From NCBI GenBank assembly GCA_964016885.1, contig OZ024741.1, positions 285,324,001-285,388,000 on the forward strand: a stretch of 64,000 nucleotides of DNA. Reading direction: 5' to 3'. Both the position numbers and the translations under genes were made by a program. Shown piece after piece: positions 34,306-49,913 of this stretch. Within the stretch, counting starts at the first letter, position 1. The number at the start of each line of letters is the position of its first letter. Below the pieces are notes generated by a model. It was not told the origin of the DNA and did not search any database. It worked only from the letters and a program-made list of their open reading frames with translations. This stretch comes from Eledone cirrhosa. Taxonomy: Eukaryota.

Positions 34306-34337
<32 letters not shown>

Positions 34338-34341
34338 GACA

Positions 34342-34408
<67 letters not shown>

Positions 34409-34421
34409 TTATATATCTATC
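34306..34421 (+). repeat. (TCTA)n microsatellite at the head of the LINE array
   Basis: Direct reading. Confidence 0.95.
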
Positions 34422-34423
34422 TG

Positions 34424-45600: not shown

Positions 45601-47113
45601 TAATGGTGTCGAAAACCTCGGAAATCAAGGTAATCGGCAAACTACTACAGGAATACGAAAGGTTCACAGGAGCAAAACTGAACCCAGACAAGTCTGTCGG
45701 TTTGCAACTCGGAACGTGGAGAGGCAAACCGATGCCGTCCGACAGCATCGTCGGACGCTGGACGGAAGGAACGGTGCAATTGCTCGGGGTCTGGTTCGGT
45801 CCAGACCTCCAGGTGGAGAAAAACTGGAACGAGGTCATGGCCACGGTATTTGCGCTCACCCAGAAGTGGGCAGAGTGCAAACTGTCTTTGAAAGGTCGAG
45901 CGGAGGTGGCGAACACTTTCATAGCGTCCGTCATCTACTACCGCTTGACTATCGTGCCTTGTCCCCGTGAATACCTCACCAAGATGGAACGCATGCTCTT
46001 CCAATTCCTGTGGATGAAGCAGGCTGCACTGGTGAGGAGATCCGTCTGCTGTCAACACCCTTCCAATGGAAAGCTGGGCATGCCCTGGCTAATGATGACA
46101 GGCCTTCCCACAACTTGTCTCGCTGACGGAGCTGCAGTCCTGGGTCAAGCGAAGACCGAAGAAGATGGGCGCCTGGCATATTGAATGCGCCCAGGCGCTC
46201 CCAGTCCTCTGTCAAGCGGGCACAGCAATCAGTGGAGACTCCACTTCAACATTCTAAAGAGGGTTAGTACTTTACAAGTGCGACGACTTGCTCGGGGAGA
46301 CTCTAGGCGTCGAAGACGACGGATTCACCAGTCTGTTCGGTAGGAATTTCCGCCCTGGACCTATGGACAACTTCCAGAGGTTCCTCGCCTGGCAGTGCTA
46401 CCGAGGAGCTCTACCCGTTCGAGATAAGATCTACAAACATGGACGCCCCGGCAGGGATCCTTTCACTAGGACGTGTCCAAGATGCGAGCATGACATTGAA
46501 ACCGTCTTGCACGCAATTGTACACTGCCCGGGCGTAAGCGACCTGTGGAACTATGCAGAACAACTGCTGTCGCGTATGGGACAAATCCAGTTGACTGCCG
46601 AGTCCATAGTAAGGATCAAACCGCCAGCCTCTTTCAAAAACGAAAGAGAGGCGGTTTTCCTCTATGATGAAAGAGGTTATATGCTGGACGAGATTGAGAG
46701 GACTGAGGACAGATGCCTTTCTCTCCGGACAACAATTGATTCCCTTCTTTAAGTATCACTTTAGAAGGAGAATCAGAGTGGAGAGAGAGGCACTGCACCC
46801 GAGTATATTTACTGAAAGGTGGGTGAATGAAGCGAAAATGGCCCGAGTGATTGTGTCTTCTCTGTTTATAAGCCTGTGGTTTAAAGAAGAGAGCAAAAGG
46901 AAGAATGGAGCACTTGCACAAGACGGTTCTGAAGTTGAGGGTTGTTCTATCGACGGGGTATTAAACAACCCATTTGTGGCGCCTCCCCCCTATTGGGGAT
47001 TTCGATTGTTATAATTGTTTGTTTCAATATTTTTACACGATGTATGTAACATTCCCGGCATGTGTCTTTGTATTGTCCCCTTTTCTTGTGCGCTCTTGTG
47101 GCAAATAAAGAAA
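42665..47113 (+). pseudogene. Degenerate Tx1-like copy (partial ORF1 from the zinc-knuckle end, frameshifted ORF2, 3'UTR)
   Basis: LKASCP, KPINHVLLKCFP, LRVGSVNVRGL, RQGCPLS, YGDD; multiple stops and frameshifts; ends AATAAAGAAA(TCTA)n. Confidence 0.9.
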
Positions 47114-47134
47114 TCTATCTATCTATCTATCTAT

Positions 47135-48318
47135 TTACCTAAGAAACAGGCCCCATTGGTGAGGAGATCCATCTGCTGCCAATGCCCTTCTAACAGGGGG
47201 ATGGGCATGCCGTATCTGATGATGTGCAAACACGCGCTGAGGCTACACTATATCCAGGTGTTCCTGACCGGTGAACATGTGTGGTTGTTTGTGAGACGAA
47301 CTTTTCCACAACTCGTCTCGCTAAAAGAGCTGCAGTCATGGGTCAAGCGAAGACCGAAAATGGGCGCTTGGCACCTCGAGTGCGTCCAGGCGCTACCAAA
47401 CGGAAATCAGCGGAGACTCCACGTCGACATTCTACAGGGGATTAGTGGAAGATAAGTGCGACGACATTCTCGGGAGACTCTAGGCATCGAACAGGACGAA
47501 CTGGCCAGTCAGTTCGGGAGGACTTTCCGTCTAGGGCCTATGGTTAACTTCCAGATGTCTCTGGCCTGGCAGTGTTACCGAGGAGCTCTACCAGTTCGAG
47601 ACAATATCTACAGGCACGGACGCCCTGGCAGAGATCCTGCCAAAATCTCCCGTCCATGATGCGAGCAGGTTATTGAAACCGTTCTGCATGCAATTGTTCA
47701 ATGCCTAGGGGCGATGGACCTTTGGAATTATGTCAAACAGCTACTGTCACGTGTGGGACGCATCCAGTTGTCAGCCGAGTCCATCGTGAGGATCACCCCA
47801 CCGCCTTCATTTAAGAATGAAGGAGAGGCGGTTTTCCTCTGTCTGGTGGCTATGGAGAAAGAAGTAATATGGTGGACGAGGTTGAAAGGACTGAGGGCAA
47901 ACACCTTCCTACCGGACAACAACTTATCCCCTTCTTTAAGTACCACTTCAGAAGGAAGGTGAGAGTGGAGAGAGAGGGGCTACAGCCCAGTAAATTTGCT
48001 GAAAGGTGGGTGAATGTGGCGAAAATGGCCCGAGTGAATGACTCTTCTCTGTATATAAACCTGTAGTTTGAGGAAGACAAAAAGTGGGAAGACGGGAACA
48101 TCTACAAAACGTGCTCCTGGTATTGAGGGTTGTTCTATCTACGGGATGTAAAACAACACCGCAGTAACGTTCCCCCCTATTGAGGATTTCGATTGTTATT
48201 TTATATATAGTTTATTGTTATATATAAATATTTAAGTTGTACGATTTTTATGTAAATCCCCCACCGTCACGTCTTGTAATGTCCCATTTCATGTACGCCC
48301 TTTTGGCAAATAAAGAAA
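47135..48318 (+). pseudogene. Degenerate 5'-truncated Tx1-like copy
   Basis: APLVRRSICCQ...WQCYRGALPVR...RWVNVAKMARV plus 3'UTR AATAAAGAAA, then TATCTATCTA. Confidence 0.85.
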
Positions 48319-49913
48319 GGTATCTATCTATGTCTCCCTCCCCCATCTCCCTCTCTCTCTTTTCATATGATGCTTTGTGTATCTATGGCAGTATAATACC
48401 ATGACAAACACTATCTTATTCAATGATAACTGAAATGAATTCCAGAAATAGAGTATACTGATACAGATTTAGTAACGTAGTAACAGTGACAGAACAAATT
48501 AATTAGGGTCATCAACAAAATTAATAAAACTAATATAAAAAATTGATAAATTAAATCAATAAATAAAAGAATATCAAAATTATTGACATAGACCCACACC
48601 AGAGCTAGTTTCACCAGTGCCAAGCTGTAAGTATCAGTTAGATAAATAAGTGCCTATTTCCACAATCTGTTGTATAATAATTCGGAGTTGGCATAAAATG
48701 TGTCGTATTTTTTTTCATGAAAGTAGGATTATTTGAGAGAGATTCAGGTGTTATTTCTGGCTAGTCAAGTGAGTGCGGAGAGGCTCCGTTTACTTTATTA
48801 GATCGTCAGAACCATATTTGACGGTAATGATGGAAGAAAGTAACAATCTTTCTGATGATGACGCCGATACAATATGGATGATGATGGTGATGATAATATA
48901 AACTCGTCAAAATTAAAAATAATAACCCCTTCCGTTGTAGACTTAAGACAAGGTAGTAAAATTGCAGAGTTCATTAGTTCCTTCAAGGCCATTCATAAAT
49001 CTGATTAATGGCAGTTAAAACTTAATCAAAATTGATTTCGAGGTATAGCGACAAGTCAATTACCAACACGCTACAGTAATTGTTAATTACATATGCACGA
49101 AGTCTGACATTTTTAGAGGATAAGAATTAGCTATAATCTTCAAGCAGATCTTATTTACAATTACGTAAAGAGGGACCATTCTATTTTGACATTCGAAGAC
49201 ATAATCACATTTTTAGAAAGGACTGGTAAGTAATTAAAATATGTTATATCAAGAATGTTGTATGAGTGAATCTAACAGCCTTGATTCGAGAGATAGATTT
49301 TAAATTAATTTGGATTTCGAAGTTGTCACCCTTGACTGGAATTAATCATTAAAGCAGTCGTTCTTTCTCTTATTAAACCGTAAATCAACAACAACATCAA
49401 TCTTTAGTTAAATATAAATATTTGTTTTGAGTCACAACAAACATTGAATAAAATAGTTTCTTTCATGAAGAAAGGTACCCAGAGAAAGTTTGCTCAACCA
49501 TTACCTACAAAATAATTTCCCCTTCAGTGTGAGAAATTGGTTCGAGGCCAGTATTAGATTCTGCAAACCTATATCCAACTACGCCTACGGACAAGAGAGT
49601 AACACACGCAAGAATTTCTTTCACAGTTTTAACAGTTGATTGTTTTTACAACGTACATTAAACCTGGAAAAAGCTAAATACACTTCTTATAGTGATCATT
49701 GGAAAGTATTCACAGAGAAAGTTAAGGTATCAATTTAGAAGTGAAATGTTTTCAATGTCCATCAACCCTAGTGCTTCTGTGGTACACAGGAAACTATAGA
49801 TAAAGTAAATTGAAGTCTATACTTCTTTGATTACATTCCCCAGAAGGAGTAGAATACAAGTCTTGAAATCCAAAGAAACACACTGTGGTAATGGCTATGG
49901 AAACGGTGCATTT

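Follow-up and report, generated by a model that had tools for sequence, protein, structure and literature searches.

Long interspersed nuclear elements (LINEs) that insert into microsatellites are already established, and Kibi, Koshi, the crocodilian Tx1 elements, Waldo, Mino, Dong and Togen are examples. Waldo and Mino, together with SART1 and TRAS, belong to the R1 clade. According to sections of PMC4494074 and PMC3812793, Kibi in (TC)n, Koshi in (TTC)n and crocodilian Tx1 in (TTCC)n/(TTTC)n are, like the family described here, LINEs of the L1 group with two open reading frames (ORFs) and an apurinic/apyrimidinic-type endonuclease (APE), located in a microsatellite. Waldo in (ACAY)n, Mino in (AC)n and SART1/TRAS in (TTAGG)n are also directed by an APE into short tandem repeats, although their clade differs (parts of PMC3812793 and PMC7265360). 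Dong in (TAA)n and Togen in (TG)n have microsatellite targets too, that of Dong being shared with one of the sister families described below (parts of PMC3812793 and PMC4640811); they are R4/NeSL-related and carry a restriction-like endonuclease (part of PMC4640811), in contrast to the N-terminal APE of the family described here. This family forms an array in a stretch of 64,000 nucleotides of the octopod Eledone cirrhosa (contig OZ024741.1, positions 285,324,001 to 285,388,000 of the forward strand; the window). It differs from Kibi, Koshi and crocodilian Tx1 in its TATC/GATA target, its octopod host and a copy number in the ten-thousands.

The array very probably consists of independent insertions of a large, likely active L1-group LINE family at TC^TAT(C/A)TAT (the caret marks the insertion point), all on one strand and likely made by its own APE nicking the GATA strand. 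Positions without a contig prefix are those in the window, C1, C2 and C11 are contigs, L-numbers are locus labels and the letters A to G denote the pieces in the window (Table 1). Seven LINE pieces, found by blastn, tblastn and self-alignment of the window, occupy positions 34423-48320. All are on the plus strand and they are 69-84% alike, in agreement with the earlier note, made from the letters alone, which had described about seven same-strand copies or fragments of differing ages and subfamilies. Its remark that, within the window, the family is confined to the array also stands, as neither blastn nor tblastn matches copy C elsewhere in the window. Six of the seven pieces end in AATAAA(A)GAAA followed by two nucleotides and TATC, in a single register, the two nucleotides being CA, TT, TC, CA, TC and GG. 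Piece E, which lacks its terminus, is joined to F without an intervening tract, likely through a deletion. None of the seven has poly(A) at its 3' end. The ends had been said to run directly into (TCTA)n without poly(A); the second half of this holds, while the first needs amending, since two subfamily-specific bases intervene and these are TC in C and F only, which are therefore the only copies to pass directly into TCTA. As a measure of chance, a same-strand two-unit TATC run is present in 6 of 1,661 30-mers in the rest of the window.

The same junction is found throughout the genome, which comprises 3.0 Gb. The 3' end of copy C gave 1,957 first-look candidates, the 40 that were scored being 99-100% identical, and an exact 26-mer of this subfamily's 3' end occurs 1,456 times, followed by TCTAT in 834 cases. 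The first 100 of the 1,456 loci in chromosome order, all on C1, were used as a sample. Their 3' junction reads TCTAT in 50 and TATAT in 44 copies, hence one or the other in 94 of 100. Copies ending in TC have a mean identity to C of 98.3% and those ending in TA of 96.3%; the two end bases therefore mark subfamilies. All of the 30 best matches to subfamily A end in CA^TAT. A family-type 3' motif occurs 31,026 times in the genome (63 times for the reversed control), and 14,031 of these ends continue with NN-TATMTAT. The family and its relatives cover 10.9 kb of 200 random kb, a rough figure to which 4 of 20 stretches contribute. In the sample, 69 copies are 5'-complete and 31 are not, while 9 contain internal deletions; such a share of complete copies is high for an L1-group element.

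On the 5' side, a two-unit TATC run is located within 30 bp upstream on the same strand in 78 of the 100 copies and on the opposite strand in one, compared to 14 of 6,660 random genomic 30-mers and 17 of 6,660 on the other strand (about 0.2% per strand). When the best 5'-end matches are taken, among them the copy in the window itself, same-strand TATC lies upstream in 29 of 30 and opposite-strand TATC in none. With the 3' junctions, these counts support the proposal of strand-specific recognition of (TCTA)n. The two flanks match over at least 8 bp in 82 of 100 copies. Informative target duplications, defined as at least 10 bp long and not merely periodic, are present in 25 of 100, while 20 shuffles of mismatched pairs gave 0-2 each. 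Measured from TAT, 16 of the 25 are 18-20 bp long, similar in size to L1 duplications. Target repeats are thus left on both sides of the element, as had been supposed.

The consensus of the 25 duplicated targets contains T in 24 and C in 22 before the insertion point, followed by T (25), A (24), T (24), C or A (20 and 5), T (25), A (20) and T (25); two of the 25 are mutual duplicates. In the 17 copies ending in TA, the match starts after the TA in 14, and the target carries TC in 13 of these 14, therefore the two end bases are encoded by the element and TATC is supplied by the target. The insertion site is TC^TAT(C/A)TAT, often merely one or two units, and a long tract is unnecessary. What had been called recognition of (TCTA)n is retained in the sense that TATC repeats are targeted, with a motif of only about 9 bp. 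TATC targeting is a strong preference and not a unique site.

In the mechanism we propose, the bottom strand would be nicked at GATA^GA, or at most 3 nt to the right of this should the RNA, too, have UAU at its end. Reverse transcription would be primed at the nick, probably aided by pairing over a few bases with the UAU(C) of the RNA end, and a second nick about 19 nt further on would give rise to the target duplication of about 19 bp. Each insertion would copy the motif, so that the tract retains an equally oriented target, and one subfamily after another (G, B, F, A and then C) would have entered a single tract within the intron, on the strand opposite to the host gene.

It is possible, if rather unlikely, that RNA-DNA pairing itself drives the targeting, nicking being loose and only nick ends that anneal to UAUC being extended. 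The poly(A) signal is located 6 nt before the element end, and cleavage normally takes place 10-30 nt past such a signal, which is here within the flanking tract. Read-through pairing lifted R2Ol insertion from 12% to 96-98% (part of PMC6530143), and nicking by the L1 endonuclease in vitro is looser than the integration consensus (part of PMC1950540). However, the T at -2 and the C at -1 of the target are conserved (24 and 22 of 25) although RNAs ending in TA, CA, TT or GG cannot pair there, and no extra TATC units have been copied. RNA pairing and endonuclease targeting are compatible and not mutually exclusive.

Less specific insertion followed by passive survival in microsatellite-rich DNA, of the kind proposed for Drosophila Waldo-A/B (part of PMC3812793), is highly improbable. 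AT-type microsatellites are very common in this genome, but AGAT arrays are rare (2 against 135 AT and 25 AC arrays in 200 kb), the sister families sort into different repeats and the motif is shared by a young subfamily with copies 98-99% alike. Passive retention, moreover, can yield neither the base-exact register nor the strand bias, and this explanation was rejected. We give next to no credence to (TCTA)n as an encoded 3' tail, as in CR1, L2 and RTE, with random insertion, even though TATC-like sequence follows nearly every 3' end. Upstream of the duplicated zone (-52 to -23) a TATC run is still present on the same strand in 58 of the 100 copies and on the opposite strand in none; among 17 anchored copies, 15 have a 3' tract of equal or lesser length than the 5' one, the 3' flank exits the repeat at the same point as the 5' duplicate, and the 3' repeat is accounted for by the duplicated target. 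The 5' flanks are mostly TATC, not the non-TCTA sequence that an encoded tail would leave, and the same-strand 5' repeats and the duplications therefore identify the repeat as target. Local segmental or tandem duplication has equally little to recommend it for the window array: elsewhere in the genome L111/L112 and L146/L149 are duplicated with their flanks, but the array members differ by the margin given above, have different lengths and lie on different branches, and are therefore separate insertions, while C and A match dispersed copies at 96-100% (C at 98-100%; A is its own subfamily, with kin elsewhere mostly 96-98% alike).

Arrays of this kind are frequent. Of the 100 copies, 37 have another family member no more than 300 bp upstream, 31 have one that close downstream and 52 have one on at least one side, compared to 39 of 660 random windows. 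Three of the 52 include an opposite-strand match and 49 are head-to-tail only, in line with the clustering seen in the window; such neighbours are frequent because targeting is strand-specific and the target is duplicated. The arrays may be self-made landing pads or, just as well, repeated hits on scarce long tracts; 200 random kb contain two tracts of at least three TATC units, both flanking one copy (n = 2).

Several points weigh against targeted, independent insertion by an active family. The 9-bp motif is short and common, with 59 occurrences in 200 random kb. A two-unit TATC run is missing at the mapped 5' junction of 22 of the 100 copies and a duplication of at least 8 bp from 18, which may reflect later rearrangement or a mis-mapped end; duplications are absent or uninformative in 75. 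Extra TATC units, expected if the RNA read through the tract, are without a clear example (both candidates among the 17 copies have periodic anchors). The putative preference of the endonuclease for the motif is deduced from junction sequences. The sample represents one subfamily and one chromosome, and within it the flanks of L111 and L112, and of L146 and L149, are identical; some copies have spread through duplication of surrounding DNA. Unequal exchange could add to near-identical arrays such as L013/L014. Of the 62 full-length, undeleted copies in the sample, only 4 have two open ORFs; among 20 copies picked for the best 5' match, 11 have them. Finally, the window's own full-length copy, C, is probably unable to nick.

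Table 1. Features of the LINE array, of copy C and of the host gene, with positions in the window.
Feature	Position	Strand	Remarks
(TATC)n tract, left end of array	34306..34422	+	29 units, period 4, 92% matches
Copy A, 5'-truncated	34423..35869	+	C-terminal 396 aa of ORF2 and 3'UTR (untranslated region); ends AATAAAAGAAA-CA; 83.5% to C
Short TATC tract	35870..35890	+	
Copy B, short, 5'-truncated	35891..36425	+	69% to C; ends AATAAAGAAA-TT
(TATC)7 tract	36426..36456	+	5' flank of C
Copy C, full-length, 5.8 kb	36460..42279	+	Youngest subfamily; ends AATAAAGAAA-TC
ORF1 of copy C	36690..38591	+	633 aa from ATG, with an RNA-binding-like region, a single C-X2-C-X4-H-X4-C knuckle and a low-complexity tail
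ORF2 of copy C	38625..42062	+	1145 aa; APE endonuclease, reverse transcriptase, C-terminal zinc motif; E39V at 38739-38741
(TATC)n / TGTC tract	42280..42389	+	3' flank of C
Copy D, 3' stub of ~110 bp	42390..42502	+	Ends AATAAAGAAA-CA
Piece E, 3'UTR stub without its terminus	42530..42659	+	79% to 3'UTR of G (42534-42659 vs 48180-48301)
Copy F, decayed	~42660..47115	+	Part of ORF1; stops and frameshifts in ORF2; 74% to C; ends AATAAAGAAA-TC; approximate left boundary
(TATC)n tract	47116..47133	+	
Copy G, 5'-truncated, decayed	47141..48320	+	69% to C; ends AATAAAGAAA-GG, then TATCTATC
Host exon, alpha7-like nicotinic acetylcholine receptor gene	26259..26363	-	aa ~83-117; next exon 5' lies outside the window
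Following exon, same gene	7155..7427	-	aa ~118-204

The family is an L1-group LINE, with APE and reverse transcriptase (RT) domains, two ORFs, a Cys/His motif, target-site duplications and 5' truncation. ORF1 of copy C has no Pfam match; atlas clusters of zf-CCHC and ZCCHC3-RBD/RRM type, at 0.89-0.92, are a lead only. In ORF2, Pfam matches Exo_endo_phos (residues 72-238) and RVT_1 (523-766) and no RNase H, while zf-RVT, at 27.2 bits, falls slightly below the cut-off of 27.5; C1011, H1020 and C1025 are invariant. When ORF2 is compared to PDB entries, the best solved relative is human L1 ORF2p (E 1.8e-50), with R2 at E 2.8e-20, and the endonuclease of an intact copy, modelled with a pLDDT of 93, finds its best fold match in the L1 endonuclease (1vyb, TM 0.80). 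Human LINE-1, the best match in ORF2 and endonuclease fold, has an endonuclease only about 20% identical to that of the present family, and prefers TTTT/AA and ends in poly(A), whereas here the target is TATC, poly(A) is absent and 69 of 100 copies are 5'-complete.

A FastTree of the RT, which carries long-branch warnings, groups the family with plant L1s in a large L1-like set and separates it from the insect RT rows; its 39-row lineage includes an Argonauta protein and unnamed relatives, and the tree holds no Tx1 anchor. The nearest named ORF2 is that of Argonauta hians (63%). Membership of the Tx1 clade is plausible, with no named Tx1 protein among the matches of the protein, cluster and atlas searches made with this family. 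Target specificity, at 78 of the 5' flanks and 94 of the 3' junctions in the sample of 100, lies above the more than 20% of flanks given for Tx1 in sections of PMC4494074, and ORF1 of the Tx1 clade contains an RRM and a CCHC knuckle (part of PMC5203782). In Octopus vulgaris, 'L1-Tx1' comprises 80 families and 56 Mb, 13 being recently active (passages of PMC13282606), and probably includes relatives of the present family; passages and one supplement file of that paper contain no target preference for it.

Endonuclease residues N10, E39, D141, N143, D202 and H227 are invariant in an alignment of 34 endonucleases that does not contain the window copy. One copy with both ORFs open had been reported from the window, and the frames of C are indeed open, yet C departs at 13 residues from two intact copies that agree with each other, one of these changes being a private E39V at the invariant glutamate. 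This DNA variant is found once in the whole genome; C is therefore likely nicking-defective or locally misassembled, and probably has lost endonuclease activity.

Family-motif ends that lack NN-TATMTAT led to relatives with other targets. Forty candidates, hand-picked among the first 100 listed, lie at (TTA)n (23), at a 72-bp repeat (14) or elsewhere (3). Genome-wide, 9,461 ends are of the (TTA)n and 355 of the 72-bp-repeat type, and together with TATC these classes make up 77% of the 31,026 motif matches. The TTA family (loci L312-L350, for example L333 and L348) has an ORF2 about 66% identical to C and forms its own head-to-tail arrays. Upstream (TTA)n is present in 9 of 9 copies traced to their 5' end, and in 12 of 22 aligned overall, the true 5' end of the rest being unlocated. 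The 72-bp family (L311, L319-L322, L326, L329 and L346), with ORF2 about 78% identical to C, is embedded in a tandem repeat of 72-bp units. This repeat precedes 14 of 14 copies and ends at the identical base, so the element may itself carry part of its target unit. Of 60 members of this family on C1-C4, 55 are no more than 35 Mb away from a contig end, a zone that makes up 17% of the length; the number is inflated by tandem copies. Compared to the TATC family, the endonuclease is 75% identical in the 72-bp and 60% in the TTA family, and the RT 88% and 77%, respectively. A DNA FastTree with midpoint root and no outgroup joins the 72-bp family as sister group to A and C and leaves F outside them (support 100 and 98). 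The T189-S199 loop, which reads WRNHSGQSR, WTNRSGTSR and WTNRIGSSR in the three families, corresponds to the L1 specificity hairpin described in part of PMC1950540. We lean towards a living radiation of sister LINEs within one genome that have divided the repeats among them, with TATC for at least 14,000 ends, TTA for at least 9,400 and the 72-bp repeat for at least 355, most of these close to chromosome ends; the 72-bp family would have been born inside the TATC lineage and carry part of its target at the 5' end. If so, the 72-bp family would build the array into which it inserts, and target switching could be mapped to few residues, the endonucleases being 60-75% identical with differing hairpin loops. 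A separate observation is L315 (C1:2.23 Mb), a copy close to G in sequence, with a GAAA-GA end followed by (TC)n and not TATC; a looser or fourth target is possible.

An alpha7-like nicotinic acetylcholine receptor (nAChR) gene hosts the array in one of its introns, in antisense orientation; the earlier note had already thought an intronic position probable. Exons flank the array at C2:285350253 and C2:285453694, with another further 5' at C2:285608542, and the gene spans about 350 kb (about C2:285.26-285.61 Mb). The neighbouring exon is 85% identical to an Octopus bimaculoides protein. A short exon for residues ~66-82 was not found in the window; the array is intronic in either case. With this antisense placement, the host transcript would be spared the AATAAA signals of the array. 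Elsewhere, at C11:23.62-23.92 Mb, more than 20 uninterrupted, distant nAChR-like ORFs are clustered, 22-31% identical to the query nAChR protein; these may be cephalopod chemotactile receptors.

The window contains other repeats. A 493-aa ORF on the plus strand (19554-21032) with YRDD and GIY-YIG-like motifs, without a Pfam match at 0.001, is the second Penelope-like fragment in the window and is flanked by inverted 464-bp repeats (19093-19556 and 21216-21679). An interspersed repeat of about 190 bp, likely a SINE (short interspersed nuclear element), is present on both strands, 88-96% alike, at 14011-14198, 26040-26205, 29266-29455, 31689-31880, 33164-33352, 49913-50098, 53512-53704 and 54691-54880. 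A decayed minisatellite with a unit of 74-80 bp is located at 17958-19064.

No GATA/TATC-targeting retrotransposon appears in the literature searched, the coverage of which does not extend to Repbase, Dfam or Kojima and Fujiwara (2004); PMC4494074 may list one in its figure of targets or its supplement. A metagenome scan gave only distant relatives (25-40% in the best segment), with no TATC array of at least four units at 80 loci and some poly(A) ends, and carries little weight as the contigs stop at element ends.

With this family, GATA/TATC joins the list of retrotransposon targets, with a site resolved to the base and thousands of natural junctions. Loop grafts between distant APE endonucleases had unpredictable outcomes (part of PMC1950540); closely related sister families in nature, each with its own target, are the test set so far missing for how APE specificity arises and changes, which is relevant to site-directed gene insertion. 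In Eledone cirrhosa itself, the family may shape intron size and the distribution of GATA tracts in the genome.

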